NCBI GenBank assembly: GCA_049294275.1
Contig: JBAQCQ010000086.1
Location: 34,160 to 98,159, forward strand
DNA length: 64,000 nt
Direction: 5' to 3'
DNA from: Bacteroidales bacterium
GTDB lineage: Bacteria > Bacteroidota > Bacteroidia > Bacteroidales > VadinHA17
This document shows positions 11,291 to 42,634 of the stretch, piece after piece. The first letter of the stretch is position 1. Each line of letters begins with the position of its first letter. The position numbers and the translations under genes are program-made. The notes beneath the pieces were generated by a model. That model ran no database searches. It was given only the letters and a program-made list of their open reading frames with translations, and was not told the DNA's origin.

Positions 11291-11307
11291 TCTAACAACA
11301 TATACAT

Positions 11308-13873: not shown

Positions 13874-13944
13874 TTTTTCCGTTCTGTAAGGTGTCTCCAA
13901 ATATACAATTTCTGTTTCTGGCCCGGAGTTCAAACATTCCTGTA

Positions 13945-15507: not shown

Positions 15508-15557
15508 ATCCCTGATTTTGATTTTTCTTTTATTGTTATAGAACCTGATTAAAATCC

Positions 15558-17531: not shown

Positions 17532-17537
17532 TATCTG

Positions 17538-21166: not shown

Positions 21167-21181
21167 TATCCGGTTGTTTGT

Positions 21182-21871: not shown

Positions 21872-21916
21872 TGCAATTCACTTTTAAATGTTAAGCCCGC
21901 AGCGAGCATCCAGCTG

Positions 21917-22621
21917 TCAGCTCACCACAAGGTTGAAAAAGAAGCCGAGTCTCGACAGTTCCTTGTACCGCTCCTCGTTGAACCTGTAGTACCAGGCCCC
22001 TTTCCTTGATGTCTCCCTCTCCTTTTCATCCTGCTTGTCAAGCAGGTTCATCGACAGGATTTTTTTCCTGAAGTTACGCTTGTCAATCGCTCTCAGGTAT
22101 ATGGCTTCATAGAGGTTCTGAAGCTGCACCAGGGTGAACTTCTCGGGGAGGAGCTCAAAGCCCACGGGCCGCACCTTGACCGTCTTCACCAGCTCCAGGA
22201 GGGCCCTGTCAACCATCCTTCGATGGTCGAAGATAAGTTCCGGTAGATTTGATATGGATCTCCAGTGAGCCCCGTTCTTCCTTCGTATAACCGGATCCAG
22301 TTCATGAATACCTATGAGTGCGAAGTAGGCCGTGGAGATCACCCTGGCGCCCGGATCACGTTCAACCTCGCCGTAGGTGTACAACTGCTCCATGAAGAGG
22401 TCAGAAAGGCCTGTAAGGCTGTACAGGACACGGGAGGCCGCATCGTCAAGGCTCTCCTTTTCCTGCACGAAACCGCCGGCAAGTGACCATTGTCCCAGGG
22501 CAGGTTCGAAACTCCTCTTTATCAGCAGCAGCTTGAGCTCCTTATCGGAAATATCGTATCCGAAGATGATGCAGTCTACTGCAGTGAAATGCCTGGGATG
22601 CCTGGAATAGAGATGGCTCAT
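21917..22621 (-). CDS. araR: NUDIX-domain transcriptional regulator (NrtR-like; Bacteroides AraR type)
   Basis: 234 aa with an N-terminal NUDIX fold ([27 protein letters not shown]) and a C-terminal winged-helix-like part. It sits between araA and araD, as in the Bacteroides arabinose cluster. Its start overlaps the araA stop (ATGA). Confidence 0.75.
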
Positions 22622-24105: not shown

Positions 24106-24138
24106 TATAATAAATGTATCTTATTTATTGTCAATGCT

Positions 24139-26582: not shown

Positions 26583-27461
26583 ATGGAGAGGGTAGCATTG
26601 ACGACTGTGATTGCCTGCGGAATTATGTTGCAGGCTTTCATTATTAATGCACCGGCGCAGCCATCAATAAACGCCCAACTTGACACTTCAACTGTTGCAG
26701 ACAGGAATCCCGTACATTCATTTTATGCCGGGGCCGGTTACGGAAGCAACATGGTTTACCTCGGTACGACCATGTCACAGGATCACGGTTTTGGGTACAC
26801 ATCATTCTCCTACGGGCTTAAGGATAAACTATATCTCACCGCCACTGGTTACACCATTGGCGGTTTCTCTCCATTCGTGGCTTTCTCCAGCGTCGGTCTG
26901 AGCTTCAACCATCCATTTAACTCATGGTTCGACATTAGCGCCGGCCTTTCGCGGTACATTGTGGCGGAATCGCTCAGGGACACACTCTTCAGCAATTTCA
27001 CCTATGCTGATGCCACCCTTGGATTCGACTGGAGGATACTGTACTCTAAGGTTTCCCTGGGAGGACTCTTTGCTGACGGCGGCCAGTTCTACCTGCAAAC
27101 AAGACATTCAAGATACTTCGAGACACCATCATTTGCCGGTGACAAGGCATTCTTCTCCTTTGATCCGTACGTCAATGTTCTATTCGGGAAAATGATCAGC
27201 ATTGAAACCACGGAAGGCACGACCACGACAGTATCACCCGGATACAGACATTGGAAAAACCGTAATCCGGGATCGTCAACAACCTATACTGAAACCTTTG
27301 GCCCTATGGAGATCGACTTCGGACTGCCCATAGCCTTCAGTTATGATTTCTTTACCATCGAGATAGAACCCGGCTATATTCTGCCCTTCTATACAGATAC
27401 CGGGACGACCGGCATGAAAGGTTTTCTGTTTATGGCCAGCGCCTTCTTCAGGATTTTTTAA
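26583..27461 (+). CDS. Putative outer-membrane beta-barrel protein (family unknown)
   Basis: 292 aa with a signal-like N-terminus ending APAQ. Aromatic/Gly-rich strands alternate (FYAGAGYGSNMVYLG, GFGYTSFSYGL). The C-terminus ends in Phe (FMASAFFRIF), as in OMP sorting signals. Confidence 0.55.
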   Translation: MERVALTTVIACGIMLQAFIINAPAQPSINAQLDTSTVADRNPVHSFYAGAGYGSNMVYLGTTMSQDHGFGYTSFSYGLKDKLYLTATGYTIGGFSPFVAFSSVGLSFNHPFNSWFDISAGLSRYIVAESLRDTLFSNFTYADATLGFDWRILYSKVSLGGLFADGGQFYLQTRHSRYFETPSFAGDKAFFSFDPYVNVLFGKMISIETTEGTTTTVSPGYRHWKNRNPGSSTTYTETFGPMEIDFGLPIAFSYDFFTIEIEPGYILPFYTDTGTTGMKGFLFMASAFFRIF

Positions 27462-27470
27462 CTTTGGGTA

Positions 27471-28151
27471 ATGAACGTCCTGATTGTTGAAGACGAAAGG
27501 AGCCTCGCGAATGAGATAGCATCCTATCTGAAGAAGGAAAACTTTCTTTGTGACGTGGCTTATTCCGGTAATGATGCATCAGAAAAGATCTCCGTCAACC
27601 TCTACGATTTTGTCCTTCTCGACCTGGGTCTTCCCGATTATGACGGGCTTGATCTGATAAAGGAAGCACGGATTAACAACATCGAGGTCTCATTTATCAT
27701 TATCACTGCCCGCGGTGCCGTTGAAGACAGGGTCAGGGGGCTGGACCTGGGCGCAGATGACTACCTGTCAAAACCCTTTGCCCTGGTTGAACTTCATTCA
27801 CGGATAATGGCAGTGGCAAGAAGAAAGTTCCAGATTACCTCTCCCGACATAAACCTGGGTGAATTTGTCATGGAGATACAGGCCCGGAGGCTGACACATA
27901 GCGGCCGGGAGGTAGAGATCACAAGAAAAGAATTCGATCTTCTGCATTATCTTGTTATCAATCAGAACAAGGTACTGGCCCGCCACCAGCTATATGAACA
28001 CATCTGGGGTAACACCCTTGATGACCAGTACGACAGCAATTTCATCGACGTTCATATCAAGAATTTACGTAAGAAACTTAATGCCCACGCACCCTCTCCC
28101 TGGCTCGAGACAGTCAGGGGCGTTGGTTACAGGGTAAGCACTGACAGGTAA
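27471..28151 (+). CDS. OmpR/PhoB-family response regulator
   Basis: 226 aa. The receiver domain reads MNVLIVEDE...DFVLLDLGLPDYDG...KPF. The winged-helix domain reads LTRKEFDLLHYL...VHIKNLRKKL...TVRGVGYRV. Confidence 0.93.
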   Translation: MNVLIVEDERSLANEIASYLKKENFLCDVAYSGNDASEKISVNLYDFVLLDLGLPDYDGLDLIKEARINNIEVSFIIITARGAVEDRVRGLDLGADDYLSKPFALVELHSRIMAVARRKFQITSPDINLGEFVMEIQARRLTHSGREVEITRKEFDLLHYLVINQNKVLARHQLYEHIWGNTLDDQYDSNFIDVHIKNLRKKLNAHAPSPWLETVRGVGYRVSTDR

Positions 28152-28166
28152 CGTGAATCAAGGAGC

Positions 28167-29492
28167 ATGATGAAATTACAGACAAAACTTGCCCTCTTCA
28201 ACCTGCTCTCAAAACTGGTCTTCTCTGCACTTTTCATCGGTTTCCTGCCCCTTATCATCGAACGGATAAACACGCGCCAGACTGACAATGAGCTGATAAA
28301 CAAGAGGGAAGAGGTCATTGATCTGATCACCCGGGTGGGAATAGAGCCATTCATCACTGCCGAATCAGAGAACGGCTTCGGCAGTTACAATATATTAAAG
28401 GAGGAATTTATCAGTCTGGAGCGGATTGACCTGTCAGAGGACTGGAACTATATCGAAGTAACGCAGAGACTCATTGATGACGAAGCCATTGTCTACCGTG
28501 TTCTCAACTATTCCTTTAAGATTGATGGCCAGACCTATCTTCTTGAGATAGGGAAAAGCCTGTCGAGCATTACCTATGGGGCAAGAAATATCAGAAGTGT
28601 CATCCTGATCTTTCTTGCGATATTCATTTTGACCACCCTCCTCTCCGACCTCTTCTATACAGCACGCATACTCCGGCCACTCAGGATCATAACCGGGAGG
28701 CTTAAAGAGTCCTCATCGTCTTCACTCCTCACAACAGGTCCGGTAATAACCTCAACGGAGGACTTTATTCAGCTTGACCATACCCTGAGGGAGCTGATGA
28801 GAAAAATCGAGGATCTTTTCCGGAAGGAGAAGGAAATTACCGTGAACATCTCCCACGAGCTTATGACTCCCGTTTCCGTCCTCCGGAGCAAACTCGAAAA
28901 CATGCTCCTCCAGGATAATATTGATCCTGTTATTGAAGCAGGGTTAGAGGAGTCACTCAGGACACTGCACCGGCTGAAGACCCTGGTAAACTCACTGCTG
29001 ATGATAGCGCGTATTGAGAGCAGGCAGTATCTCAGAGAGGATACGGTAGAACTGGAATCACTGCTGAACGAGGTCGTGGAAGAACTGAGGCCAATAGCTG
29101 AAGATTCGGGCGTGATCATTTCCCTGGACTGCGGAAGCAACTTTGCTTTCAGAAACGCAAACAGGTCCCTGATATTCTCAATGTTCTACAATGTGGTGAA
29201 CAATGCAGTTAAGAATACTCCCGAAACCGGAAGAATAGATATAAGCGGGAAGGAAAGCGAGGGAAGGTATAAAGTCTCAGTCTCTGATACCGGCAGGGGC
29301 ATGTCAAAAGAGCAGATTGACAGGCTCTTTTCGCGATTCAGCACCAGGTTTGATCCGGCAGGCGACAGCACCGGAATCGGGCTCGCCATCACAAAATCAA
29401 TAGCAGATTTTCATGACATCGCCGTAAGGGTGTTGTCTGAACCCGGAAAAGGCACGCAATTTATTTTCTTTTTCCCCGTAAATTCATTATAG
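28167..29492 (+). CDS. Sensor histidine kinase (2 TM, about 120-aa periplasmic loop, HisKA+HATPase_c)
   Basis: 441 aa. The boxes are H box NISHELMTPVSVL, N box NVVNNAVKNT, G1 VSDTGRGM and G2 GIGLAI. It lies 15 bp after the response regulator gene. Confidence 0.92.
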   Translation: MMKLQTKLALFNLLSKLVFSALFIGFLPLIIERINTRQTDNELINKREEVIDLITRVGIEPFITAESENGFGSYNILKEEFISLERIDLSEDWNYIEVTQRLIDDEAIVYRVLNYSFKIDGQTYLLEIGKSLSSITYGARNIRSVILIFLAIFILTTLLSDLFYTARILRPLRIITGRLKESSSSSLLTTGPVITSTEDFIQLDHTLRELMRKIEDLFRKEKEITVNISHELMTPVSVLRSKLENMLLQDNIDPVIEAGLEESLRTLHRLKTLVNSLLMIARIESRQYLREDTVELESLLNEVVEELRPIAEDSGVIISLDCGSNFAFRNANRSLIFSMFYNVVNNAVKNTPETGRIDISGKESEGRYKVSVSDTGRGMSKEQIDRLFSRFSTRFDPAGDSTGIGLAITKSIADFHDIAVRVLSEPGKGTQFIFFFPVNSL

Positions 29493-29984: not shown

Positions 29985-30016
29985 AAAAAAACCGGCGGAG
30001 AGATCTGCCGGTTTTT
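29985..30016. terminator. Bidirectional intrinsic terminator between convergent genes
   Basis: AAAAACCGGC (29987-29996) and GCCGGTTTTT (30007-30016) form a perfect 10-bp stem with a 10-nt loop. An A-run lies on one side and a T-run on the other. It sits between the stops at 29965 (+) and 30023 (-). Confidence 0.85.
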
Positions 30017-30022
30017 ATATTT

Positions 30023-31237
30023 TCACTTTATAATGAGGCCCATGGGAACACGCAGGAATTGAGCCCTGTATGCTTCGACATCCTCAAAGATATCCCTCAC
30101 ATCCAGAGAATTGACACAGTAGGTGACCAGCAGCCGGTCATCATCAATGTACTGACCGTGAGCAAGGGCATTGTAGGTGATGATATGGTTATCCGGATCA
30201 GAATCCGCCTCCGGGGCATGGTAGATGAACCTTTTATTATGAAAATCCTTATGCGGAAAATCTGAGATGTAAGTGTAAATATCATCTCCTGCCCTTTCCT
30301 GTGAAAGCAGGATATACTTGTCCCCGTACCTGAAGACACTGAACTGCTCCGACACGGAGATGTCAATATCGAGTGGTGCCGACCTGCTGATATCCTTATC
30401 CCACTCTTTCCCTGTAAAAAATTCCCAGCCCCGGTAAAAGTCAGCACTTTGCATGGAGACACGGGCAACGTGGATCTCCGAATGACCGGGATTGTTTCTC
30501 GTGCCGTAGATATAGAGGTAGCCACCGTCTGCCATGACACAGTTCCCGAAGTCGATCAGGCTGACAGGATAGTTGATCTCAACCCTGTGGGTCTCAAGAT
30601 GACTGAAACCGGGGAAGGTAAAAGACAGGAGATCAATATGGGAGATGGCGAAGGTAAATATGTTCTTCACCACCGTGTCAGCCGGCCGGTCGTTTTCACT
30701 GTCGTAAAAAGCCTGAATAGCGGCTGTGTCAGGCACATTTATAAGGCTGAGGGCAAAGACATGAACGGTATCGTTCTTCACAAAGCCGTGGCCGGGCCAG
30801 TACCAGCGGTAAGTCGAATCGCCGGGTTCATTTACCGGCTCCATCAATGTTTGCGGCCTCGCCCAGGTACCCCTGTATATCGGTCTCACAAGGGTCCTGT
30901 TACTGTCAATCAACACGAAAGCATTGCGCAACATCGTGGTCAACGTGTCCCTGGTACCGTTCACCACCTCGCCAAGAAAACAGTCGCCCAGCATGAAGAG
31001 TGACGATCCATCGGGCATCAGAACGGAGAAGAGGCCGTCAGCTCCTGTGATGCCTCCGGAATCAGAGTAGAAGAGTGAGCGAAAATCCTCATCAGCGGTG
31101 ACATGACCCGTTGTCGTTCGTCCCGGCTTGCAGGCTGATATCAGAAGAGCCAGAGATATACAAAACGCCAAGGATGCTTTCAGACTGGCTGTTCTGTTGC
31201 TGATAGTTCTTATTTTGAAGTTTCTGTTCTCTTTCAT
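30023..31237 (-). CDS. Lipoprotein, beta-propeller-like putative glycoside hydrolase (DUF4185-like by memory); paralog A
   Basis: 404 aa with lipobox LLISACK. It shares blocks with 31285..32619 and 35608..37008: GADGLFSVLMPDGSSLFMLGDCFLGEV, YRWYWPGHGF, GGYLYIYG, GWEFFTGKEWDKD, YNALAHGQY...LLVTYCVNS and YRAQFLRV. Confidence 0.55.
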   Translation of the reverse strand: MKENRNFKIRTISNRTASLKASLAFCISLALLISACKPGRTTTGHVTADEDFRSLFYSDSGGITGADGLFSVLMPDGSSLFMLGDCFLGEVVNGTRDTLTTMLRNAFVLIDSNRTLVRPIYRGTWARPQTLMEPVNEPGDSTYRWYWPGHGFVKNDTVHVFALSLINVPDTAAIQAFYDSENDRPADTVVKNIFTFAISHIDLLSFTFPGFSHLETHRVEINYPVSLIDFGNCVMADGGYLYIYGTRNNPGHSEIHVARVSMQSADFYRGWEFFTGKEWDKDISRSAPLDIDISVSEQFSVFRYGDKYILLSQERAGDDIYTYISDFPHKDFHNKRFIYHAPEADSDPDNHIITYNALAHGQYIDDDRLLVTYCVNSLDVRDIFEDVEAYRAQFLRVPMGLIIK

Positions 31238-31284: not shown

Positions 31285-32619
31285 TTACTTCTGACTGTAC
31301 CTTACTCTGATAAACCTGGGGTGGTAGATGGTTGCATCCTTTTGTATATCTTCCCAGAAATCAAGGGTGATGGTATTATAGCTCACCAGCAGCTCGCCGG
31401 GGCCTGAGAGATGATAATGAGCCTTGGCATTGTATGGGAGCAGTCCTTTCTCAGCGTATTCGGGACATGTATATACCTCGTTGATATCCCCGAACGGACC
31501 GGCAGGACTTTCACCCACGCGGATGCCGATCTTGTCGGAGATGCCCATCACGGTAAAAGTCAGCAGGAACCTTCCGTCATCCGTGGGAGTTACACTGAGT
31601 TCGTTGGACACACCATCAGTGATCGGTGCAATATTCTCAACCCCTTTCACCCAATCCTCGCCGTTCCAGAATCTCCACGCCCCGATCTTTTCAATCCTGC
31701 CCGGCTTCGTCCTTGCAGCTAGAAGGGATTTGCGTCCCTCAGCAATTCCGTAGATGTAAACATATCCGTCAGGAAAGGGGGCTCCGGCGCTTCTGGTGTT
31801 GACCAGAATTCCGCTGCCAAAATAAACCCTTCCATATTCAGGATGGACAAAGCCCAGCCCAGTTGGGAATTGCTCATAGTGTGACATATTCTCCAATGAT
31901 GGTTTTCTTATCCTGATCAGGGCAACGTTGGTGGCCTCGAAATCAAAGACATTCGGACCGGTCTTGTGTACATGGTAGGCAAAGATGTAAAGGGCGTTCC
32001 GTTTCGCCCGGTTCACGAACCCGTCGCCCAGCCAGAAGTATTCTCCCTCCCTGCTGTTCTCATTATCAGGCACGAAATATGACACCGGATTGCCGTTCCG
32101 GTCCCGGTTATATTCAAATATCACCGAATCCCTTACGGGAAGAGTGCCGCTCATCAGGGCTATTGAGTTGTTAACCATTACATTACCCGGCTGAGGGACA
32201 CCATCTTTCACCTCTCCGATATATGTGTCACTGAAAATAAAAAGCGTCTTCTTCTCCTCCGCCCTACCCTCTTCAATCCCATCAAGGGGAATTGAGAAAA
32301 TACCGTCGGCGCCGAACCATCCGGAGGTGCGCTCCATAAGGGCGGTCCATTCAGGTGCCGGCTCAGCGGTGAAGGTGAGCGGCTTCAGGGGTTGGGATAT
32401 GCTTCTGCCGTTGTTGGCACCAGGTTCAGTTCCGCATCCACCTGTGATCAACAAGATCAGCAGGGCAATCAGCTCCCTTGTTCCTGTGACCAGCAGATAA
32501 AAGAACCCCCCTTTTCCCGTGATTGGCTGGGCAAAAATCTCCCGTTTTCTCATGACCGGCAGTGAAAATATCCTACCTGTTCTCGTGACCGGCGGTGCAA
32601 TATTCTCCTTCATTCTCAT
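31285..32619 (-). CDS. Lipoprotein, same beta-propeller-like family; paralog B (N-terminal region made of 11-aa repeats)
   Basis: 444 aa with lipobox LITGGCG. Shared blocks are GADGIFSIPLDG...LFIFSDTYIGEV, EYFWLGDGF, DGYVYIYG, AWRFWNGEDWVKG, YNAKAHYHL...LLVSYNTIT and YHPRFIRV. The start is ambiguous (32619 or the MRKRE Met at 32553). Confidence 0.55.
   Translation of the reverse strand: MRMKENIAPPVTRTGRIFSLPVMRKREIFAQPITGKGGFFYLLVTGTRELIALLILLITGGCGTEPGANNGRSISQPLKPLTFTAEPAPEWTALMERTSGWFGADGIFSIPLDGIEEGRAEEKKTLFIFSDTYIGEVKDGVPQPGNVMVNNSIALMSGTLPVRDSVIFEYNRDRNGNPVSYFVPDNENSREGEYFWLGDGFVNRAKRNALYIFAYHVHKTGPNVFDFEATNVALIRIRKPSLENMSHYEQFPTGLGFVHPEYGRVYFGSGILVNTRSAGAPFPDGYVYIYGIAEGRKSLLAARTKPGRIEKIGAWRFWNGEDWVKGVENIAPITDGVSNELSVTPTDDGRFLLTFTVMGISDKIGIRVGESPAGPFGDINEVYTCPEYAEKGLLPYNAKAHYHLSGPGELLVSYNTITLDFWEDIQKDATIYHPRFIRVRYSQK
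32461..32592. repeat. Four tandem imperfect 33-bp repeats at the 5' end of paralog B
   Basis: The units are 32461-32493, 32494-32526, 32527-32559 and 32560-32592. Each ends in (G/A)TGA(C/T)(C/T)(A/G)G, and the GTGACC-like cores are spaced exactly 33 bp apart. U3 versus U4 is 23/33 identical. They are translated as PVTRTGRIFSL/PVMRKREIFAQ/PITGKGGFFYL/LVTGTRELIAL. Confidence 0.8.
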
Positions 32620-32634
32620 TATCTGCTATTTAGA

Positions 32635-35529
32635 TTATTCCTCAACATATTTTGTGATCGCCTCTTTCCATACCAGATACCCTTTCCCGTTAAGGTGCAA
32701 ACCATCGCTGCTGTACTCCGGGTTAAGCTTGTTGTTTTCGAGCCTGAACAGTTCAAAGAGGTCGATATATGTTATCCCGTTGGCGCCGGCAATCTCCCTG
32801 AGCCGGTCGTTGATAGCTATGATGTCACTGTTGCGCCGGGTATAATGGAGGGCGTCGTCGGTCGGGATGACACTCTGAATGTAAATCCTTGTTCCGGGTG
32901 TTGAAGCGGTGATGAGCCGGATTATTTTTTTGTAATTTTCAATTATATAATCGACGCTCTTGCCGTTCGAAAGATCATTGGTGCCGATCATAATAAAGAT
33001 CTTCGAAGGCCGCGATTCTGTCACTTCTTCAAGCCTTTCAAGGATGCCGTCAGTGTCATCACCGCCGATGCCCCTGTTCCTGATCCTTGTGTTACTGAAA
33101 AGCTCCCACCATTCGGCATTATCGGTGATGCTGTTGCCAAGGAAGATGATCTCATTCTCACCGTTGGGCAAGCTCTCAAAGTGCTCCTTCTTATGGTAGT
33201 AATAGGCTCTCAGGGCTTTGTTCCATATCTCCAGCTCTTCGGCATACCGGTCATACTTTATAATCTCGCCAATCTGCTCTGCTGTCATCCCGGAACTCAT
33301 TGAGGGTGGCGCCTTCTCCGGGCTGCTGCCCCATTCCTTTTCCGGCATTGAGCTCATCTCAAGCACCAGCCTGCCGCCGGCGGCAAAATCTGAGTGAGGG
33401 AACCAGGGACCTTCCAGCTCCTCACCGTTGAGTTTCGCTTTCCTGATAAAGCCCTTCCCGGGGGAACTGTTCCCGGCCTCAATGATAAACTCACCGCCGG
33501 GATAATATCTTTCATCGAGACGGATAGTCACCTTCTCAAAAACTGGACTTCCAATCTCATAAATGGGAGTGGCAGATGTGCCGCCGTCGGTTTGGAAGAG
33601 GCCAATGGCACTCATAACATAGAGGGCTGCTGACTGTGCGGGGTCATCAGCGGCAGAGCCCATTGGGGCATCATTCTTCTGATAACCTGAGAGAATCTCC
33701 CGAACCCATTTCTGCGTAAGCCAGGGGGCACCGGCGTAATTGAAGAGCCAGGCAGCCTGCAGGGGTGACTGCCGGAAACTATAGCCGCCGGAGAAGAGCC
33801 TCTCTTTTATATCATCGTCGCTGTCCTCTTCTTTACGGTCGGGTGAGAGACAATCAGAGATCTCCCCCTCAAGCCTTGTCACAAAATCTTCTCTTCCGTA
33901 AATATCAATCAGTCCCCTGACATCATGGGGAACGAAAGTCTGCATCACCCCGGCCTCAGGTTTGGCAAGATGCCTGTAACTGAAAGCCCTCTTTGCAAAA
34001 GTCCTGTAATCCGGCACATTCCCCGCTGCAAGGGCTATCTCAGCCATTGCCCCGTCATGATATGCATATTCAAAGGTGAGAGATGCAGGAGCCTTCTCCT
34101 CAGGCACATAACCCGAGGCAAGGTAGGTCTCAAGATATCTCTTGCCGGCAAATCCGCCACCTTCATGAGGCTTGCCGGCATTGCTCAGGTCATGCATCAG
34201 GGCCCTGTAGAGCATCACAGTGTCATAATCCCTTATCCCCTTCTGCAAGGCAGATGTCAAGAGGGGGATCAGCTGCGAACTGACGGGATGATCAGCATAT
34301 TCAATGCCTTCAGAGCCCTCCGGGAACCAGCCGCCGCAGGCGTGCAGGGCGAGCAGTGACCTGACATAACTGTTGACAAGGTCAGGCTGGCAGAGAGCCA
34401 TCAGCTGATTTATGGCCACGGTGCCCGGCCCCGGAGGGGTGCTTCCGAAAATAGCCAGGTCAGTATCATCAGGCTGCTGAACGTTTTCATACATATCAAC
34501 ATACTTTCCGTTCACATCACTCCATACGGTCAGTCCTGCGAAGACGCGGTACATAGCTGTGTAGAACATCCTGAGGTCAGCTTCGCTCCCACCCTCGACC
34601 CTGATGCCCATCAGGAGATCATTCCATGCCATTCGGTTCATCTCACTGACAGCGTCAAAATCCCAATTAAACGGACCCAGCTCTCTATCAAGATTAAGCC
34701 TGGCCTGGTCAATGCTCACCAGTGACACTCCTGACTGCACCAGTACCGTCTCCCCCTCATGGGTCTTAAAGTTCAGAAAGAGCCCCGTGCTTCCGTCGTC
34801 ATACAGTGAACGTATCTCCGTAATATCTCGCATGATCTCCCCGCCCAGCCATCCGTTGAATGTATCAAACGGCTTACTGAAGCGAACCACAAAGTGAAGT
34901 GTGTAGAGGTTGTGATGGGCACCGAGCAGGCTTCGTTGTCTGGAGAAACCCTCTATCTCCCTGTCGCTCACCTTCGTAATGCACGACTCAAGAAGTTCGT
35001 AACCGTTGTCGGTGGGGATCTTCAGGTCAAACAGGATGCGGGAAGAATCTGACTCCGGGAAGGTATATCTCTGGAATGCTGCCCTTGCGGTGGTAGTAAG
35101 CTCCGCTTTGATGCCGTAATCATCCAGGAAGACCGAATAGTAACCCAGCCGGGCTGTCTCGTTCTGATGGCTGAAGCGAGAACGGTAACCTGCGTCAGGG
35201 TCGTCAGGAGCACCGGGGACCATTTGCAGTTCACCTGTTGCCGGCATTACCAGCAGCCCTCCCATCGTGCGGGAGTGGATATGACTGAAGCCGGCAATAT
35301 TCCCAGTGTTATAATCATAACCGGCTTTATAACCCTTCATCTGGTTATCAGGACTGATCTTTACCATTCCGGCAGGCATGGTCACACCCGGGAAGAGTGT
35401 CCAGCGGGGTGAGGAGGTCCCCATCAGAGGATCAACATGGTCAACAGGATCTGCTCCGCCGGTCTGGGCTGTAAGTGTAAAACAAAAACCTGCAAGTAAC
35501 AGCATGGAGGAAATGATAAATTTTTTCAT
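32635..35529 (-). CDS. GH92-like domain fused to a C-terminal SGNH/GDSL esterase domain
   Basis: 964 aa with a signal peptide. The GH92 N-terminal pattern is VDPLMGTSSPRWTLFPGVTMPAGMVKISPDN, GFSHIH and SRFSHQNETARLGYYSVFLDDYGIKAELTTTARAAFQRYTF. The GH92 C-terminal pattern is NYAGAPWLTQKWVREIL and YEIGSPVFEKVTIRL. The last ~200 aa are SGNH blocks: IIFLGNSITD (I), RGIGGDDT (II), IMIGTNDL (III) and SSDGLHLN (V). Confidence 0.8.
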   Translation of the reverse strand: MKKFIISSMLLLAGFCFTLTAQTGGADPVDHVDPLMGTSSPRWTLFPGVTMPAGMVKISPDNQMKGYKAGYDYNTGNIAGFSHIHSRTMGGLLVMPATGELQMVPGAPDDPDAGYRSRFSHQNETARLGYYSVFLDDYGIKAELTTTARAAFQRYTFPESDSSRILFDLKIPTDNGYELLESCITKVSDREIEGFSRQRSLLGAHHNLYTLHFVVRFSKPFDTFNGWLGGEIMRDITEIRSLYDDGSTGLFLNFKTHEGETVLVQSGVSLVSIDQARLNLDRELGPFNWDFDAVSEMNRMAWNDLLMGIRVEGGSEADLRMFYTAMYRVFAGLTVWSDVNGKYVDMYENVQQPDDTDLAIFGSTPPGPGTVAINQLMALCQPDLVNSYVRSLLALHACGGWFPEGSEGIEYADHPVSSQLIPLLTSALQKGIRDYDTVMLYRALMHDLSNAGKPHEGGGFAGKRYLETYLASGYVPEEKAPASLTFEYAYHDGAMAEIALAAGNVPDYRTFAKRAFSYRHLAKPEAGVMQTFVPHDVRGLIDIYGREDFVTRLEGEISDCLSPDRKEEDSDDDIKERLFSGGYSFRQSPLQAAWLFNYAGAPWLTQKWVREILSGYQKNDAPMGSAADDPAQSAALYVMSAIGLFQTDGGTSATPIYEIGSPVFEKVTIRLDERYYPGGEFIIEAGNSSPGKGFIRKAKLNGEELEGPWFPHSDFAAGGRLVLEMSSMPEKEWGSSPEKAPPSMSSGMTAEQIGEIIKYDRYAEELEIWNKALRAYYYHKKEHFESLPNGENEIIFLGNSITDNAEWWELFSNTRIRNRGIGGDDTDGILERLEEVTESRPSKIFIMIGTNDLSNGKSVDYIIENYKKIIRLITASTPGTRIYIQSVIPTDDALHYTRRNSDIIAINDRLREIAGANGITYIDLFELFRLENNKLNPEYSSDGLHLNGKGYLVWKEAITKYVEE

Positions 35530-35607: not shown

Positions 35608-37008
35608 TTATCTGAAGATGAATTTTTTTGTCTCTGTACCCCATTTCCCGCTCAGGCGGACTATCATCATCCCTCCGCGGATGTGACTGCAGTTTATTTC
35701 GGTATCATCCCTCACTTCACACCGGAGGCAGAGCCTGCCGTCAAGACTGAAGATCTCCACCGAGGAAGAGGAAGAGATACTTCTTACCTGGAGGTATCGC
35801 GTCAGCGGATCATATGCAAGGTGGCTACCAGGAGTGTCGTAATCAACCCCTGCAATTCCCACAGGGTTATCAAAGATTGTGATGGTGTCAGGGATGGCAG
35901 CTGTCACCGCTCCCTCAACATCCAGCCAGAAAAAACGGGCCCTGTAATTGCGGGTATCCTGGTAGATCGAATTGAAGTTGGTGGTGTTGACATTGAACGA
36001 GATCAGGATATCACCCTCCTTCTGAAAATGCGGATGAGCGAAAAGGTTATATGTAATGTTTCCCGTGTGTGGCGTGATTTCCGCAAACTTGTTTTCAATC
36101 CCTCCAGACGACTTGCGGTTCCACGGGCCGGTTATCTTGTCGGCCTCAAGGATAAAGAGCTCGCCCACGAGCCATATCTCATGCATGATCAAATAGAACT
36201 TGCCGTTTCTTTCATACACGTAGAATGACTCGCTCATGGGCCTGTCTCCCAGCGGCACGGCATCCCTGATGTCGTCCGACCAGGTTTCAGATCCAGCGTA
36301 GAACTGCCACGGCTCATCTATGCTCCCGGATACCCTTGCCAGGTAGGGCAAAGGGTAGGTGAAACCGCCGGAGGTGGTGTCCCTGATCCCGAAGATGTAT
36401 GTGAACTCTCCGCTCCTGACGACGCAGGCACCAAAGCGGAAGGTGCTGTCTGTAACCGATTCGAATTTGGTGGTCGAAATATGTTTCATAGCCGGGTATT
36501 CGTAGGAGGCCCTGTAGGTTGTTCCGACCTGAAAATTGAATCCCGGGATCCCGTTGTCAACTATCTTCACCCTCACCGCAAAGACCTTAACAGTATCATC
36601 TTCTATTACCGCATGCTCCGGCCAGAAAAAATCAGCTCCCTCCCCGGGGATGAATGATGAGGGATTTTCTGAGGTTCCGCCGTGCAGGGTATTCATAGCC
36701 GTACCATCTTCAATAATGGCGGCATTGTTTATCATCCTTGAACCCACAGGAATAATGGTGAACTCTCCGCTTTTTGTCCCGATGAAACTGTCGCCAAAAA
36801 GCCAGAATGTCTTGCCGTCCGGAAGAGGGAGGGAGATGGTCGCATCACCGGCGCACCATCCTCCCGCCACACTGGTGAATTTGTCAAAGTGCTCCGGCGC
36901 CTCCGATATAACATGCTGAGCCTGGAGTTCAGAGATAAGGAGTGGCTGTGTCGTCAGCGTCAACAACAAAATATATCTGAACAATATGGTAATGTCTCTG
37001 ATCATCAA
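35608..37008 (-). CDS. Same beta-propeller-like family, paralog C, with a T9SS (Por) C-terminal sorting domain
   Basis: 466 aa with a signal peptide ending LQAQ. Shared blocks are CAGDATISLPLPDGKTFWLFGDSFIGTK, DFFWPEHA, GEFTYIFG, PWQFYAGSETWSDD, YNLFAHPHF...ILISFNVNT and YRARFFWL. The last ~70 aa (VEIFSLDGRLCLRCEV...INCSHIRGGMMIVRLSGKWGTETKKFIFR) fit the T9SS CTD pattern. Confidence 0.6.
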   Translation of the reverse strand: MMIRDITILFRYILLLTLTTQPLLISELQAQHVISEAPEHFDKFTSVAGGWCAGDATISLPLPDGKTFWLFGDSFIGTKSGEFTIIPVGSRMINNAAIIEDGTAMNTLHGGTSENPSSFIPGEGADFFWPEHAVIEDDTVKVFAVRVKIVDNGIPGFNFQVGTTYRASYEYPAMKHISTTKFESVTDSTFRFGACVVRSGEFTYIFGIRDTTSGGFTYPLPYLARVSGSIDEPWQFYAGSETWSDDIRDAVPLGDRPMSESFYVYERNGKFYLIMHEIWLVGELFILEADKITGPWNRKSSGGIENKFAEITPHTGNITYNLFAHPHFQKEGDILISFNVNTTNFNSIYQDTRNYRARFFWLDVEGAVTAAIPDTITIFDNPVGIAGVDYDTPGSHLAYDPLTRYLQVRSISSSSSVEIFSLDGRLCLRCEVRDDTEINCSHIRGGMMIVRLSGKWGTETKKFIFR

Positions 37009-37038: not shown

Positions 37039-39378
37039 TCACCTCTTCCCGATCTTCTCCTTTTTCATTACCGGTTTGCCGGATTCATACTCAAGTGTAT
37101 AGTAATTATTTTTGTATAGCACGTGATGGAGTTTACCGTCAAACTGAAAATTTTCAGACGCTTTCAGGACCTCACCATCTGTCGACGGGTAGAAACCGAA
37201 AAAGTTTTTCAGTACCACCTGGGCGAAGGCTATCCCCGATGACGACTCCCTGTTGCACCAGTCCCGTTCCGCAATCCTTACCAGGGCATTCTTGCTGGTC
37301 TTGTTCTCACCCCACAGCTCATGGGCCTGTGCCCATATCCCCTCATAGGTCACCGGCTCTACAGCACGGTAAAACTCAAGTGCTTTCTCAGGGTAGCCCA
37401 TCTGCGTGAGGGCGTCCATGATGTCAACCGGCCATCCGTCAAAAGCGCCGAACGGACCGTGATCGGCACGGTCTGAATGTTCAGCGGCAATATCCAGAAG
37501 AGACTGTGCCCTCATCCAGTGATCGGTTATCAGCTCATCATACAGAAATCCGATCATCTCTTCTTTAATCTCTCGGGGGATATCATCAGGGATGTATTTG
37601 CCGAAGAAGGCAAAATCGAGGCAGTGACGTACCTCTATGGTCTTGTTGCCGGGATAAAGGCTGTTCCAGACACCGTCTCCGGCATACAGTTTCAGGATAC
37701 GCCCTATCATATCGGAAGCGAGAGCGTCAAGCGTATCTGCTTTCGGCTGGTCGCCGTGCTGACTGTATAGTTTTGCCGTCTCGCGCATCATCCATGCATA
37801 ACCAATATTGAATGAGGGAACAATATGTTTGTAGGTTGGCACACATTCAAGCAGGTTCCACTCATCATCGCCGAAATCTGCCAGCCTGTAGATATCGTCA
37901 GTAGCGCCCTCACTCCCGTAAACAGATATCTTTTGCCAGTTAAGTGCATACTCTTCCAGGTGCTCAAGCACGCTCTTGCCCTCGATTATCTCATCCAGAT
38001 ATTCATAGTCGCCCGTGACGTTGATATAATCGCGGATCAGCTGAAACCTGGCCCAATAGTTCGCCGAGTAGCCGTTGCCGACACCCTTGCCCCCGAAGTT
38101 ATCCTTCCCGTAATATTTATCCGGATCGATCCCGAACCACGCGGAGAGATGCTCCTTCATCATCACCGGATCAACAACAGCCCACAGGGTTGACCAGAGA
38201 GTGATATCCCAGTAAAAGGTGATAGATGCACCCCATCGCGGTCCTCCGGTAAGGAATACCTTGTCATGCTCGGGCAGGTTGGTATTCGTGAGGTAAAGCA
38301 TTGTCAGAGGGCTGGTGTAATATACCTTTCTGACCAGGGGGTCATCTGTCTCCAGGACGGGAAAACATCCGGAGATAAGATCATTGCCCGGACGGAAGAT
38401 CATCTCCCACTTTTCTTCCCAGCTATCTTTTATACCTGCAAAAAGCGTATCAAAATCTGATGACCAGGCTGTTATATTTTCCTTCACAGCCTCCTCGTCG
38501 TCTCCGTATGACATGAGGTATTTTATTGTCCTGGTCTCTCCCGGGGCAAGTGTGCAGCTCCATGAAGCCGTCGCCCCGCTGTTCCATGCTGTCACGGTAT
38601 CCGGAGGAGTAACGACGGAGAAGGAGATGACCGCATCCGTCTCGGTGTCATGTATGAGAATCCTGTTTTCCCCAGCTGTTGCATGGTATTTTGAACTGCC
38701 CAGTATCTCCGTGTCTCCCGGCCATTTCATCATTATCCTGACAAGCTGAGGCTTCCCGTCAATCAGTTCCCGGCTAAACCCTTCACTTGTGAAAATCTCT
38801 TCCCCCAGGTGATCCCTGATGTTTTCCACCTCCTCATCACGTTTGGTTACCTGGCCCGACATCTTCGGGTAGGGATACCACCACTGCCAGTCGCCGCCAT
38901 ATTTACTGATGAAACCTATCAGGTCAAGTTCGAGATTCAGATCTTTGGCGAGGGTGTCGCTGTTGGTTATATCAACCTGCCACATGACCGCATCCCTGTC
39001 AAAAAGCATTCTTGTTGAACTCAGTATATCCAGTCCGTCAACGCTTCCTTTCCTGAGCCCCTGCCAGGGCTGCCAGCGCCATGTTGTTGCCTTCGGTGTC
39101 TTGCCGTTGACCCTCAGCGTTCCGGTATGATACCCGCCGGAAAAAGGAGCTGAGACAAACCAGCTTATTGAAGTCATATCCCTGTTCAGCAGCGCCTGCC
39201 CGCGAAAATTCCTGATGGATGGTTCCATCTCCACAGTGTCGGATGAGACCCAGACGCCTGACAGCTCTTCAAGCGAAGGAATACTGTCGCTGATGCTTCC
39301 GCTGTCAGGGCGGTTGTCATCGCAGCCTGTCGCGCTGATCAGCACCAGGAAGGTCATGAGATGTATCGCTCTTTTCAT
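37039..39378 (-). CDS. Lipoprotein, putative (alpha/alpha)6-barrel glycoside hydrolase, GH63-like (family assignment tentative)
   Basis: 779 aa with lipobox LISATGCDD. It has an N-terminal beta-sandwich-like half. The segment GGPRWGASITFYWDITLWSTLWAVVDPVMMKEHLSAWF resembles the GH63 PRGFLWDEGFH...WDP motif as I recall it. The length is similar to E. coli YgjK. Confidence 0.4.
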   Translation of the reverse strand: MKRAIHLMTFLVLISATGCDDNRPDSGSISDSIPSLEELSGVWVSSDTVEMEPSIRNFRGQALLNRDMTSISWFVSAPFSGGYHTGTLRVNGKTPKATTWRWQPWQGLRKGSVDGLDILSSTRMLFDRDAVMWQVDITNSDTLAKDLNLELDLIGFISKYGGDWQWWYPYPKMSGQVTKRDEEVENIRDHLGEEIFTSEGFSRELIDGKPQLVRIMMKWPGDTEILGSSKYHATAGENRILIHDTETDAVISFSVVTPPDTVTAWNSGATASWSCTLAPGETRTIKYLMSYGDDEEAVKENITAWSSDFDTLFAGIKDSWEEKWEMIFRPGNDLISGCFPVLETDDPLVRKVYYTSPLTMLYLTNTNLPEHDKVFLTGGPRWGASITFYWDITLWSTLWAVVDPVMMKEHLSAWFGIDPDKYYGKDNFGGKGVGNGYSANYWARFQLIRDYINVTGDYEYLDEIIEGKSVLEHLEEYALNWQKISVYGSEGATDDIYRLADFGDDEWNLLECVPTYKHIVPSFNIGYAWMMRETAKLYSQHGDQPKADTLDALASDMIGRILKLYAGDGVWNSLYPGNKTIEVRHCLDFAFFGKYIPDDIPREIKEEMIGFLYDELITDHWMRAQSLLDIAAEHSDRADHGPFGAFDGWPVDIMDALTQMGYPEKALEFYRAVEPVTYEGIWAQAHELWGENKTSKNALVRIAERDWCNRESSSGIAFAQVVLKNFFGFYPSTDGEVLKASENFQFDGKLHHVLYKNNYYTLEYESGKPVMKKEKIGKR

Positions 39379-39390: not shown

Positions 39391-41175
39391 TTATGTTCTA
39401 ACATATGCTTTTATTGTGGCGCATTCACTCCCTTCTGATTCACCGTGGGGCCGAATTGTATACTCCCCGACTGCGGCCGGGATAATGAAGGTTTCGGCAT
39501 AATGGACGATGAACGGCTCAAACCGTCCGCCAGGACTTTCAACGATGATCTCACGGCCCTCGATCAGGTTCAAAACATTCACGCCACCGCGGGTGTTGTG
39601 AACAACCTTTTTGGTGAACCAGTGCCTGCGAGTCTCGATGAACTCCCTTACATGCAATCCGGTAGCCTCCTCGGTCCAGCCATCACCCTCAGCAACTTTT
39701 CTGACCTGGTTTATGAGGTTGTTGCGGACATAGTCCGTGGTACGCTCCCACTGAATTACGTTTTTGCCGTGCCCGATGTTGATAGGCCTCGGCCTTCCGT
39801 CAAGATCGAGACGTCCCCAGTCCCACAGCTTGAAAGTGAAGATGTAGGTCGTGGAGCTTATCTCCAGCACCAGGCAGTTCTTCCCCGAGCAGTGAACGGT
39901 GCCTCCCGGTATCAGGAAATGGTCATGTTTATTTGCCGGCCACCTGTTGACATATTTGACATCATCGAAACGGGATCCCTCATGCTGTGCCTTGCAAAGA
40001 TCGTCAATCATCGCTTTCGGACTGATGCCTTCTTTCAGTCCCAGGTAGACTGAGGCATCTTCTCCGGTATCCATTATGTAGTAACTTTCGTCCTGCGTAT
40101 AGTGCATGCCGAATTTCTCCTGGATGTATTCAGTCACCGGGTGGACCTGCAGGCTGAGGTTTCCTCCCTCCATGGTATCGAGGTAGTCGAACCTTATCGG
40201 GAACTCATCGCCAAAACGTCCATACACTGCTTCTCCCAGCAGTTCAACAGGATGAAAGAACACCAGGTTCACAGAGGGTGTCTCAAACAACCCCTCCCCG
40301 AAATCAAACATCAGGCTGTTCTCCTCAACAATGCAATTAAAGCACCAGGAATAGTTGGCTGGAGCAGGATCAAGACTCAGTTTCCTCTTCATCCATTGCC
40401 CGCCCCAGATACCCTGGTCAAAGAGGGGGACAACACTGTAAGGTGTTGTAATTCCCTTTGCCATCGCTTTATCGAAAGCTTCTGCGGTAACCATGGCAGG
40501 AGAGTTCATGTTGGTGGTGTCAAGGACAAAATCCCACTTGCCTCTCAGCTTTTTCTTATGCCTGTCACAGACACGCCAGTCGACAAAGAAGCCTCGCTTG
40601 TATTGCAGCTCGAACAGTTCCTCCCTGTTGCTGAGGCCGAGATTGTCCACCCTGTTGGCCCTCATCCTGAGCTGTATCTCCCACCGCGGCATGTCAGCAT
40701 AGATGATAAGGGAGGGCCTGCGTGCCACCAGCGCCGCACCGTACCCGAACACGAGTATGGTTCCACGGGTTACGGAATCGATTCTGCTCATGCATGCCGC
40801 AAGCTTCTCATTACTGATGAGATCCTTAAAAGTCAAACGGGTAAGGTATCCGAAGATACGGTCGTCGGTGACGTCAGGCCAGGTTATCCTGGAAATCTCT
40901 TCAGGGGCGAGAAAATAATCCCTGCTGGTAATAACCAGATCAGGCTTCAGCCTTTCGGTAAAAATTCCGAGCAGATCTTCAAAGATAACCCCCTGGTAGC
41001 AGTCAACGACAATCACCTTTTTGCCAGGGTTGCCGTCGTAAAGCTGACTGAAAAGCTCCCCGAATATCCTGTCCCATCCCCCTGAATAACCGTTACTGAA
41101 TTCACTGACGCGAACCACGGGTACCTGATTGAAGTTGGAATCAGGTTTGTCTTTCTCGCTAGTTGTATCCCTCAT
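39391..41175 (-). CDS. Long-form class I phosphomannose-isomerase-like cupin protein (cytoplasmic)
   Basis: 594 aa with no signal peptide. The PMI type I pattern is IWGGQWMKRK...FPIRFDYLDTMEGGNLSLQVHP...DESYYIMD...HFLIPGGTVHCSG. It follows an N-terminal extension of about 250 aa. The gene overlaps the susD stop by 17 nt. Confidence 0.6.
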   Translation of the reverse strand: MRDTTSEKDKPDSNFNQVPVVRVSEFSNGYSGGWDRIFGELFSQLYDGNPGKKVIVVDCYQGVIFEDLLGIFTERLKPDLVITSRDYFLAPEEISRITWPDVTDDRIFGYLTRLTFKDLISNEKLAACMSRIDSVTRGTILVFGYGAALVARRPSLIIYADMPRWEIQLRMRANRVDNLGLSNREELFELQYKRGFFVDWRVCDRHKKKLRGKWDFVLDTTNMNSPAMVTAEAFDKAMAKGITTPYSVVPLFDQGIWGGQWMKRKLSLDPAPANYSWCFNCIVEENSLMFDFGEGLFETPSVNLVFFHPVELLGEAVYGRFGDEFPIRFDYLDTMEGGNLSLQVHPVTEYIQEKFGMHYTQDESYYIMDTGEDASVYLGLKEGISPKAMIDDLCKAQHEGSRFDDVKYVNRWPANKHDHFLIPGGTVHCSGKNCLVLEISSTTYIFTFKLWDWGRLDLDGRPRPINIGHGKNVIQWERTTDYVRNNLINQVRKVAEGDGWTEEATGLHVREFIETRRHWFTKKVVHNTRGGVNVLNLIEGREIIVESPGGRFEPFIVHYAETFIIPAAVGEYTIRPHGESEGSECATIKAYVRT

Positions 41176-42634
41176 TCTGGGTCAGCTTGGGATTTAGATA
41201 TCTCTCCTTCTGGGGTATGGGAAACAGTGTGTGATAAGACTGTATATTCGCAGTTGGCTTGGCCAGTTGAACACGCTCAATGAGTTTTCCCATCCGCACC
41301 AGGTCATACCACCGATGCCCCTCCATCACAAATTCCCACTGCCTCTCCTGTAAGATGGCATCCTTGAACGACTGATAGTCCAGTCCTTCCGGCAGGTCAA
41401 CGAGGCCAGCCCTGTTACGGATGTCATTTATGGCATTATATGCACCGAGGTCAGGACCATTATTGATTTCGTTAAGCGCTTCTGCATACATCAGCACCAC
41501 ATCCGAATAACGGAGGTAGATGAAGTCAGCATCGGATTCACCGTTCTGCCTCCCTCCTTCAGCCTCCTGATCCCAATACTTCCTGATGTAAGGCCCATTG
41601 AACACCTCTCCTTCAAATTCGGTGATGAAGGTTGCCGCCTTCCTCTCATCGGTGTCACTGTAACTGTTGTAAAGATGATCAATCGGTCGTTCCCAGCCCT
41701 GGCCGTTTCTCACCCCGTTGGGAGAATCAGTGGTTGGCATAAGCCTTACCATGAACTGGTTCGTGGTCCAACCCTCACCCAGCGTGCCGCTGAAGTTTAT
41801 TGCCCATAAAATCTCCCCTGAATTGGCATTGCCGATCTTGAAAATATCTGCAAATTCCGGCTCAAGTGTATAATGTCCAATAACCTTCTCAAGAGAGGTT
41901 TTTGCAGATGAGAAATCTGCGGCGTTGCCGGTCAGCGCTCCCCTCGTAAGATAGGCCTTGGCCAGCAACGCGGAGGCCGTATGGCTTGTGGGCATCCCTT
42001 CCACTCTCTTGGAAAATGGGTTGACTGCAAGAAGCTGTTCAGCCTTCTGGAGATCGCTGATAATGCTTTCATAAACATCAGCCACAGGACTTCTTTCGAT
42101 CTGCGATTCGGTTACACTCTTCGTCGGGAAAAGCTGGAGAGGAACATCCCCGAACAATCTCACCAGATCGAAATAGAGCATCCCCCGAATGAAATAGGCT
42201 TCACCCTGAAGATGATCCTTTACCTCCGGTTCCGAATAATCAGTGATGTTCCCGGATTCTTCCAGGAGGACATTGGCCGACTGGATAACCTCATAACAGC
42301 CGACCCATATATAATAAAGAGTGGAGTTATTAACATCAAAAGTGAACTGTGACAGGTCATGCATATCAATCGACGGACCGGTCTCATAGCAGTTATCAGA
42401 GGCGAGATCCTGAAGAACCCAGTAATTATTGAAAAACAATCCGCCGCCGGTCCATGTCCATGTGATCAGTCCTGCAAACATGCCGTCGGCAAAGGAGATC
42501 AGATCATCTTCCGTCAGGAAATAGTTATCATAGTTCAGTTCAGAACGCAGGTCCTGTTCAAGGAAGTCTTTGCAGCTGGTCAGTAAGAGCAGCATGACCG
42601 TCATCAATATTGTGATTTTCTTCATTGCAGGCAA
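41159..42634 (-). CDS. susD: SusD/RagB-family nutrient-binding outer-membrane lipoprotein
   Basis: 491 aa with lipobox LLLTSCKD. The SusD-like TPR pattern is present (EAYFIRGMLYFDLVRLFGDVPL, RYSDVVLMYAEAL, RQWEFVMEGHRWYDLVR). It lies immediately downstream of susC. Confidence 0.92.
   Translation of the reverse strand: MPAMKKITILMTVMLLLLTSCKDFLEQDLRSELNYDNYFLTEDDLISFADGMFAGLITWTWTGGGLFFNNYWVLQDLASDNCYETGPSIDMHDLSQFTFDVNNSTLYYIWVGCYEVIQSANVLLEESGNITDYSEPEVKDHLQGEAYFIRGMLYFDLVRLFGDVPLQLFPTKSVTESQIERSPVADVYESIISDLQKAEQLLAVNPFSKRVEGMPTSHTASALLAKAYLTRGALTGNAADFSSAKTSLEKVIGHYTLEPEFADIFKIGNANSGEILWAINFSGTLGEGWTTNQFMVRLMPTTDSPNGVRNGQGWERPIDHLYNSYSDTDERKAATFITEFEGEVFNGPYIRKYWDQEAEGGRQNGESDADFIYLRYSDVVLMYAEALNEINNGPDLGAYNAINDIRNRAGLVDLPEGLDYQSFKDAILQERQWEFVMEGHRWYDLVRMGKLIERVQLAKPTANIQSYHTLFPIPQKERYLNPKLTQNEGYN

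Follow-up and report, generated by a model that had tools for sequence, protein, structure and literature searches.

A Bacteroidales GH92-SGNH fusion protein with a degenerate glycosidase module and a complete set of SGNH catalytic residues

The window analysed here is a stretch of 64,000 nucleotides from a Bacteroidales bacterium (contig JBAQCQ010000086.1). Its minus strand carries at 32635..35529 an open reading frame (ORF) with an ATG start that encodes 964 amino acids followed by a stop codon. The product comprises a signal peptide, a module derived from glycoside hydrolase (GH) family 92, a linker and an SGNH esterase domain. The GH92-derived module has lost the loop with the general acid of this family together with several active site motifs, and the SGNH half retains its catalytic residues. 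We consider it likely that GH92 hydrolysis has been lost in this lineage and that the protein acts as a periplasmic O-acetylesterase with a GH92-derived, non-catalytic scaffold or binding module.

All parts of the fusion gene are given here as minus strand coordinates. A Sec-type signal peptide was recognised by eye at residues 1-22 (MKKFIISSMLLLAGFCFTLTAQ; 35464..35529), where the structural model shows a helix at 2-19. It is followed by the N-terminal domain, a beta-sandwich (GH92N, residues 31-269; 34723..35439), which is supported by Pfam (Glyco_hydro_92N, PF17678, 31-269, 3e-66), by the model and by Foldseek, and by the degenerate (alpha/alpha)6 ‘catalytic’ domain (GH92cat, residues 275-745; 33295..34707). 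The Pfam match of the latter (Glyco_hydro_92, PF07971, 1e-84) starts at residue 275 and is split in two stretches, as is the match to the NCBIfam GH92 model TIGR01180 (349 bits versus a cutoff of 249.55), whereas an intact relative shows a single stretch. A helical linker (residues 746-774; 33208..33294) with invariant W769 and N770 is conserved in both clades described below. The predicted SGNH acetylesterase domain (residues 775-964; 32638..33207) matches Lipase_GDSL_2 (PF13472) at 796-951 with 6e-28. In public databases the protein is labelled as alpha-1,2-mannosidase or GH92 hydrolase by automated annotation.

An earlier note on this DNA had described GH92 and SGNH parts within one protein and had proposed to survey the fusion in relatives. 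The Pfam domains and the single, uninterrupted reading frame support this description, and the motifs quoted in that note were found by translation at the places given. The survey was based on the best 120 matches (P0001-P0120) among 5.8 billion clusters, and all 120 show the architecture GH92N, GH92 and GDSL_2. An identical protein of 964 amino acids is moreover present in NCBI, JGI, ENA and Logan assemblies. Because of this shared architecture and the identical protein in separate assemblies, the fusion is genuine and not an assembly artefact. The closest genomes are uncultured Bacteroidales metagenome-assembled genomes (MAGs) with 94-96% identity.

Active site positions were surveyed in a MAFFT alignment of the window protein and its 120 homologues, to which Bt3990 was added as a ruler. 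The Bt3990 chain was taken from HMMER output, the native number being the chain index plus 19, and this numbering was validated on eight named residues (Trp88, Cys393, Met394, Glu533, His584, Glu585, Asp642 and Asp644). GH92 comprises Ca2+-dependent, inverting exo-alpha-mannosidases. According to published work, Glu533 is the general acid of Bt3990, Asp644 the base and Asp642 a second carboxylate. In BT3130, Asp353 of the W-D-T motif binds O3/O4 of the sugar in the -1 subsite; by alignment, it corresponds to Asp348 of Bt3990. Met394 of Bt3990 sits over the sugar ring. Glu533 turned out to be the Glu of F-T-E-G-N-S-W (in general F-T-E-G-N-x-W). The G-N-(E/Q)-P motif covers residues 599-603, reading HGNQP in Bt3990 and HGNEP in BT3130 and BT3965.

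For comparison, the proteins were divided into two groups. The short clade consists of the window protein and P0001-P0011, that is 12 clusters of ~964 amino acids which are at least 61% identical and derive from uncultured Bacteroidales. The remaining 109 of the best 120 homologues form the long clade of intact fusions, which have ~998 amino acids and are at most 57% identical.

Alignments of the window protein to GH92 chains in the PDB break between residues 529 and 531 and leave ~33-40 residues of each chain unmatched, whereas the intact relative P0026 aligns from end to end. The break reflects the clean loss, compared to all intact GH92s, of 34 residues between positions 529 and 530, a lesion that had escaped the earlier note, with the scar EAGVM/QTFVP at residues 525-534 (33928..33957, minus). 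The removed block contains G-x-G-F-V-E-G-N-A-W-Q-Y and with it the counterpart of Glu533. Glu533, Gly534, Asn535 and Trp537 are deleted in all 12 short-clade proteins. In contrast, Glu533 is kept in 108 of the 109 long-clade proteins and is also present in Bt3990, BT3130 and BT3965. The window protein is thus devoid of the GH92 general acid.

Further motifs are eroded (all coordinates on the minus strand). The sequence SFRQS (residues 584-588; 33766..33780) stands in place of H-G-N-Q-P, so that His, Gly, Asn and Pro are gone and Gln alone is retained. Asn601 is replaced by Arg586 and by R, E, L, V, G or W across the short clade, compared to Asn in 108/109 long-clade proteins. Gln602 is kept as Gln587, encoded by the codon 33771..33769 exactly as the earlier note had located it, and the same position is Gln in 107/109 intact fusions. 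AADDPAQ (residues 626-632; 33634..33654) replaces G-D-E-D-x-G-Q. Here Asp642 has become Ala627 (A, G, L, T, S or C across the short clade, Asp in 108/109 of the long clade), but the essential base Asp644, the C-terminal Asp of the D-E-D motif, is kept as Asp629 in the window protein and in 11/12 of the short clade. The altered block pointed out in the earlier note is hence real with respect to the second carboxylate and does not extend to the base. Likewise, the catalytic Glu and Asp which according to that note might be conserved elsewhere in the sequence were found only in part, the Glu being absent and Asp644 present.

The -1 subsite is affected as well. ADHPVS (residues 412-417; 34279..34296) is found instead of the G-C-M-V-G loop, with Pro415 at the position of Met394, which is variable across the short clade and Met in 106/109 long-clade proteins. 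PPGPGTV (residues 365-371; 34417..34437) replaces the F-W-D/N-T-F motif and places Pro368 where the Asp of W-D-T is expected. In the long clade Asn601, Asp642 and Met394 are each at least 97% conserved. The window protein therefore differs from catalytic GH92s in the acid, Asp642, the H-G-N-(Q/E)-P motif and the -1 subsite residues, and agrees with them in the base.

The Asp of W-D-T is also missing from the long clade, where Asn (59/109) or Ile (46/109) is found (FWNTFW or FWITFW). Since this O3/O4-binding residue is lacking even in intact fusions, their -1 sugar may not be plain mannose.

In contrast to the GH92 half, the SGNH half was described as complete in the earlier note, and the alignment agrees. 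The motifs GNSIT (798-802), GIGG (820-823), GTND (849-852) and DGLH (942-945) provide the Ser of block I, the Gly of block II, the Asn of block III and the D-x-x-H of block V. The respective residues S800, G822, N851, D942 and H945 do not vary among 40 aligned fusions drawn from both clades. The nearest solved relatives are 7pzg and 6njc (E about 1e-50, about 42% identity), followed by proteins of the PAF (platelet-activating factor) acetylhydrolase Ib type. The alpha/beta/alpha fold was confirmed by Foldseek with a TM-score (TM) of 0.83 and a root mean square deviation of 1.8-1.9 Å to 7pzg/6xpg. Based on these motifs, the SGNH half with its complete Ser-His-Asp triad and oxyanion residues is predicted to be the working catalytic part. 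An acetyl specificity is suggested by its closest relatives. Among the annotated ORFs of the window, neither sialidase nor nan genes were recognised; nothing at the locus points to sialic acid, and the domain is not classed as a sialate esterase.

A neighbour joining tree was built from the 704 GH92 columns shared with Bt3990 (50 bootstraps). All 50 replicates recover the short clade as monophyletic, and all 50 place it inside the intact fusions. Its sister is P0014, a protein of 998 amino acids in which the Glu533 loop is still present. Nevertheless P0014 reads YVNRF for HGNQP, DEE for DED, GNT for WNT and Thr for Met394, and by these motifs it looks like a transitional form. The contig of P0014 shows the order DUF5005, fusion, DUF5005 and GH43, and ends before informative upstream genes.

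The two clades also differ in how their domains evolve. Pairwise identity within the short clade is 74% for GH92N, 61% for GH92cat and 81% for SGNH, whereas the long clade shows the inverted order with 72%, 73% and 64%. At an SGNH identity of 0.7-0.8, the identity of GH92cat amounts to 55% within the short clade versus 78% within the long clade. Ratios of nonsynonymous to synonymous substitution rates (dN/dS) were determined according to Nei-Gojobori for the window gene versus its orthologues in the MAGs WOFB09, UBA4772 and UBA4070; the orthologues of L004, L005 and L040 were left out due to saturated synonymous sites. The window gene yields dN/dS of 0.21-0.26 for GH92cat, 0.08-0.14 for GH92N and 0.06-0.16 for SGNH, compared to 0.02-0.06 for GH92cat and 0.06-0.11 for SGNH in unsaturated pairs of intact fusions. 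Moreover, of the GH92cat positions with at least 95% conservation in the long clade, 81 vary among short-clade proteins and 13 have acquired a different conserved residue there, compared to 1 relaxed and 0 switched positions in SGNH. On the other hand, 121 GH92cat positions are still conserved between the short and the intact clade. The relaxation in the short clade, by a factor of ~4-10, is thus specific to the GH92 catalytic domain, which is nonetheless clearly not neutral but under purifying selection.

The structure was predicted with AlphaFold2 using a 40-sequence alignment (mean predicted local distance difference test score 80, predicted TM-score 0.73). The beta-sandwich, the barrel helices and the SGNH core are confident. 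Low confidence is confined to residues 38-48, 56-89, 406-413, 578-580, 618-626 and 775-783. Apart from the last, which is an inter-domain linker, these are the loops that form the active site in canonical GH92s. Foldseek relates the model to BT3965, BT3130 and BT3990 with a target-normalised TM of 0.76-0.80. By homology and by fold, with a beta-sandwich and an (alpha/alpha)6 barrel, the protein hence belongs to GH92.

As membership of GH92 by homology and fold is combined with the loss of its catalytic residues, the GH92 half is probably a GH92-derived pseudo-glycosidase module. We infer its inactivation because the Glu533 loop is deleted, Asn601, Asp642, Met394 and the W-D-T motif are lost, and selection is relaxed in this domain only. 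The conclusion of the earlier note, an altered GH92 part next to an intact esterase, is therefore upheld on grounds other than those argued there.

The fusion gene is part of an operon whose genes are co-oriented on the minus strand and separated by no more than 78 nt. The adjacent, co-oriented genes for SusC (42643..45726) and SusD (41159..42634) identify it as a polysaccharide utilisation locus (PUL), and the order is repeated in orthologous loci. Next comes a cytoplasmic protein of 594 amino acids without signal peptide (39391..41175), referred to as PMI-like. Its residues 244-481 are similar to mannose-6-phosphate isomerase of type I (1qwr, E 1e-12) and are preceded by an N-terminal region of ~240 residues. 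The gene is found in the window and its closest relatives and is absent from the distant short-clade loci L004, L005 and L040. It is followed by a lipoprotein of 779 amino acids (37039..39378) that has no sequence match in Pfam, NCBIfam or the PDB, and is conserved at 58-96% identity across Bacteroidota. Its AlphaFold model shows a GH94-like fold, i.e. a beta-sandwich plus (alpha/alpha)6 domain distantly like GH94, GH65 and GH63 (TM 0.5-0.58, 11-13% identity). Judged by this model, it probably represents an unclassified family of glycoside hydrolases or phosphorylases.

Three DUF5005/DUF4185-like paralogues flank the fusion gene, one on its 5’ side (35608..37008) and two lipoproteins downstream in the same operon (31285..32619 and 30023..31237; all minus). 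By eye, two of the three have a lipoprotein signal and one a Sec signal. Short-clade loci hold 3-4 such paralogues versus 1-3 in most intact-clade loci. Similarity to the GH183 endo-alpha-D-arabinanase 8hhv is weak (2.5e-07 over about 100 residues). An assignment of these neighbours as GH183 endo-D-arabinanases was dropped, given Pfam E-values of 1e-6 to 5e-13 with two of three below the gathering score. Likewise, a link of the DUF4185-like neighbours, a mannosidase and an acetylesterase to acetylated methylmannose polysaccharide would require the mycobacterial methylmannose polysaccharide hydrolase MmpH to be a DUF4185 protein; it was ruled out since the respective paper shows MmpH to be an (alpha/alpha)6 barrel. 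P0101, a protein of 1372 amino acids from a JGI metagenome, is a triple fusion of GH92N plus GH92, DUF5005/DUF4185 and GDSL. As it joins both partners in one protein, it suggests that the fusion and its DUF5005 neighbours are functionally linked. Directly after the last DUF5005 gene lies a strong hairpin (29987..30016) with a 13-bp palindromic stem flanked by A and T runs, by its sequence probably a bidirectional terminator at the end of the PUL operon. Apart from this hairpin, a scan of the operon for sigma-70 promoters and terminators was uninformative.

The same gene order recurs in L040 at 61% identity, and intact fusions of Gracilimonas mengyeensis and of one Bacteroidales genome lie within the same PUL core. 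Presence of neighbours was evaluated by tblastn over 39 loci, covering about 10 kb on each side of the fusion gene. Within these flanks, which cover the whole operon, none of the six short-clade loci has a ROK or an MFS gene; among the long-clade loci, most carry ROK and about half carry MFS. Compared to long-clade loci, the neighbours in the window are 53-64% identical and SGNH 59-69%, versus 41-47% for GH92cat. Two loci from Planctomycetes MAGs (L032, L035) match only residues ~4-745 at 48-49% identity and thus show a GH92 part without SGNH; in two others (L038, L039) the match is confined to the SGNH part, with 59-63% identity.

Outside of the PUL, an L-arabinose utilisation cluster was found at 12743..25794. 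Its genes encode an aldose 1-epimerase, a GH51 alpha-L-arabinofuranosidase and two GH127 beta-L-arabinofuranosidases; further genes encode an FGGY kinase, a class II aldolase (AraD-like), a regulator of the NUDIX/NrtR-AraR type, L-arabinose isomerase and an SSF symporter. In the region 7216..12657, a GH3 enzyme with inserted PA14 domain (897 amino acids, minus) has two kinds of neighbour, a GFO/IDH/MocA oxidoreductase in divergent orientation and a protein with tandem 3-keto-disaccharide hydrolase domains. Oxidative 3-keto-glycoside pathways typically show such a pairing. The stretch that separates the arabinose cluster from the PUL, at 26583..29492 on the plus strand, encodes a response regulator of the OmpR type (27471..28151) and a histidine kinase (28167..29492), preceded by an ORF of 292 amino acids without Pfam match. 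A HisKA/HATPase gene is likewise located near the orthologous PUL in L040.

Based on these data we propose the following history. The ancestor would have been a periplasmic, bifunctional GH92 exo-glycosidase and SGNH O-acetylesterase that deacetylated a sugar, which was then removed by the GH92 module. This architecture survives intact in about 109 related proteins of ~998 amino acids across Bacteroidota. In one Bacteroidales lineage the motifs would have eroded first, as in the state of P0014, followed by deletion of the acid loop and loss of the glycosidase function. The downstream genes for a ROK kinase and an MFS transporter would have disappeared from the PUL as well. What remained as the working part would be the esterase, on which constraint is strongest and which would remove O-acetyl (short acyl) groups from imported oligosaccharides. 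The GH92 fold was probably retained for stability, oligomerisation or glycan binding. As the fold is kept under purifying selection, the module is likely a non-catalytic scaffold or a platform for glycan binding.

Some points weigh against a complete loss of glycosidase activity. Mutants of Bt3990 in Glu533 keep residual activity. The equivalents of Asp644 (D629), Gln602 (Q587) and Gln647 (Q632) are conserved in 11/12 short-clade proteins. Together with a dN/dS of ~0.23, which indicates real constraint, this conservation suggests that part of the GH92 pocket may still matter, be it for binding or for a re-wired reaction. Finally, Asn601 and Gln602 of the H-G-N-(Q/E)-P motif are putative Ca2+ ligands. 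A literature search for text on Asn601 and Gln602 returned nothing relevant.

It is conceivable, albeit rather unlikely, that the GH92 module has been repurposed. It could be a glycan clamp that determines specificity by presenting an acetylated sugar to the esterase. Alternatively, it could be a re-wired glycosidase in which Asp629 works with a new acid on a modified sugar, e.g. an O-methylated or O-acylated one. Such a reading fits in so far as the Asp that binds O3/O4 in canonical GH92s is missing from the intact fusions, too. If true, the PUL family would represent a route to a new glycan specificity.

Retained catalysis taken by itself, with Asp629 as base, an acid from another loop (e.g. 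Glu404/Glu407), an altered or modified sugar and maybe no need for Ca2+, appears improbable to us. Apart from the three conserved pocket residues, the low dN/dS and the odd -1 subsite of the intact fusions (Asn or Ile for the W-D-T Asp), it could draw on the 13 ‘type II’ positions of GH92cat, including K384>E and T387>E beside the -1 loop; Glu404 and Glu407, newly conserved, lie near the former -1 loop. However, the lost positions are mostly variable instead of newly conserved, as seen for Asn601 and Asp642, and relaxed positions far outnumber switched ones (81 versus 13). Bt3990 also has Glu at position 384, where no catalytic role is known. Moreover, selection on GH92cat is 4-10 times weaker than in intact relatives, the active site loops are of low confidence in the model, and the kinase and transporter genes of the PUL were lost alongside.

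An opposite view, in which the esterase alone matters and the GH92 part is a functionless, decaying remnant, or in which fusion and deletion are assembly artefacts, has very little probability. Although the faster evolution of GH92cat and its lost catalytic motifs would be in line with decay, no interruption of the frame is seen along 745 codons in the 12 clusters, which have diverged to 61% identity. In addition, dN/dS is far below 1 in both GH92 domains, the 121 positions shared with the intact clade persist and the fold is predicted confidently. The identical protein in many independent assemblies speaks against an artefact. The proposal of the earlier note that the general-acid Glu of a G-N-E-P motif is swapped for Gln can practically be dismissed: some GH92s do read HGNEP (BT3130, BT3965), but the numbered alignment refutes the swap, as the acid sits in the T-E-G-N-x-W block and Q587 aligns with Gln602 of the active Bt3990 and with Gln in nearly all intact fusions.

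A GH92-derived module that has lost hydrolysis thus remains our preferred explanation, and it has several implications. The label alpha-mannosidase or GH92 is probably wrong for the short clade, and predictions of mannan degradation from metagenomes that count such proteins would be inflated. The fusion would represent a natural case of a bifunctional carbohydrate-active enzyme turned monofunctional with its dead glycosidase fold kept. The transitional sister together with the parallel loss of sugar kinase and transporter genes would be useful for studying how pseudo-glycosidases originate and why they are retained. The PUL combines the GH92-SGNH fusion with several DUF5005/GH183-like proteins, the unclassified GH94-like-fold family and the PMI-like protein. 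It is widespread in Bacteroidota, and a comparison of intact and degenerate versions offers a handle on finding its glycan.

Compared to known systems, the GH92 half is most similar to Bt3990, BT3130 and BT3965 (PDB 2wvx, 6f8z and 6f91), with which it shares the two-domain fold, clear homology in sequence (E 1e-62 to 1e-70) and the equivalents of Asp644 and Gln602. It differs by lacking the Glu533 loop, Asn601, Asp642, Met394, the W-D-T Asp, the His-Glu of the 580-loop and Trp88, and by its additional C-terminal SGNH domain. The intact fusions of ~998 amino acids from Bacteroidota and Balneolales (e.g. Gracilimonas mengyeensis, Flavivirga eckloniae and Rhodohalobacter sp.) are annotated as ‘GH92 family glycosyl hydrolase’ and uncharacterised. 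They resemble the window protein in architecture, linker, SGNH domain (59-69% identity) and PUL core with SusC/D, the PMI-like, the 779-aa GH94-like and the DUF5005/DUF4185 proteins. In contrast, they keep Glu533, HGNQP, DED and Met394 (at least 97%), GH92cat is their most conserved part, and their PULs usually include ROK and often MFS. Neither a family of GH92-SGNH fusions nor a GH92 without catalysis was found described in the searchable literature, which does not prove that no description exists.

The SGNH domain has all blocks in common with the sialate O-acetylesterase of Phocaeicola (Bacteroides) vulgatus (6njc, 7pzg; TM 0.83). However, this esterase and those of the PAF acetylhydrolase Ib type are stand-alone proteins of ~200 amino acids, whereas the domain in the window is joined to a GH92-derived module of ~745 amino acids. 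A functional analogy is offered by RiCE17, an SGNH acetyl-mannan esterase of Roseburia intestinalis that relies on an attached non-catalytic carbohydrate-binding domain, a CBM35 ‘clamp’, to recognise its substrate. The partner in our protein is a large degenerate glycosidase fold instead of CBM35, the domain order is reversed, and glycan binding is a proposal.

Xanthan pathways of gut bacteria, in which SGNH esterases are followed by a GH92/GH38 alpha-mannosidase and then by GH94 or GH3, provide a precedent for the ancestral logic of the PUL: mannose is deacetylated, alpha-mannose is removed and a GH94-type enzyme handles the rest. Here, however, lyase and GH88 are missing from the PUL, the 779-aa protein is only a distant relative of GH94, and the mannosidase step is seemingly disabled. 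Glycosidase-derived pseudoenzymes as such are already known as a kind. In Arabidopsis, beta-amylase9, which is reported to activate alpha-amylase3, has a glycoside hydrolase fold that lost catalysis and was kept for a non-catalytic role, albeit in another family, another organism and with another role than proposed for the GH92 module of the Bacteroidales fusion.

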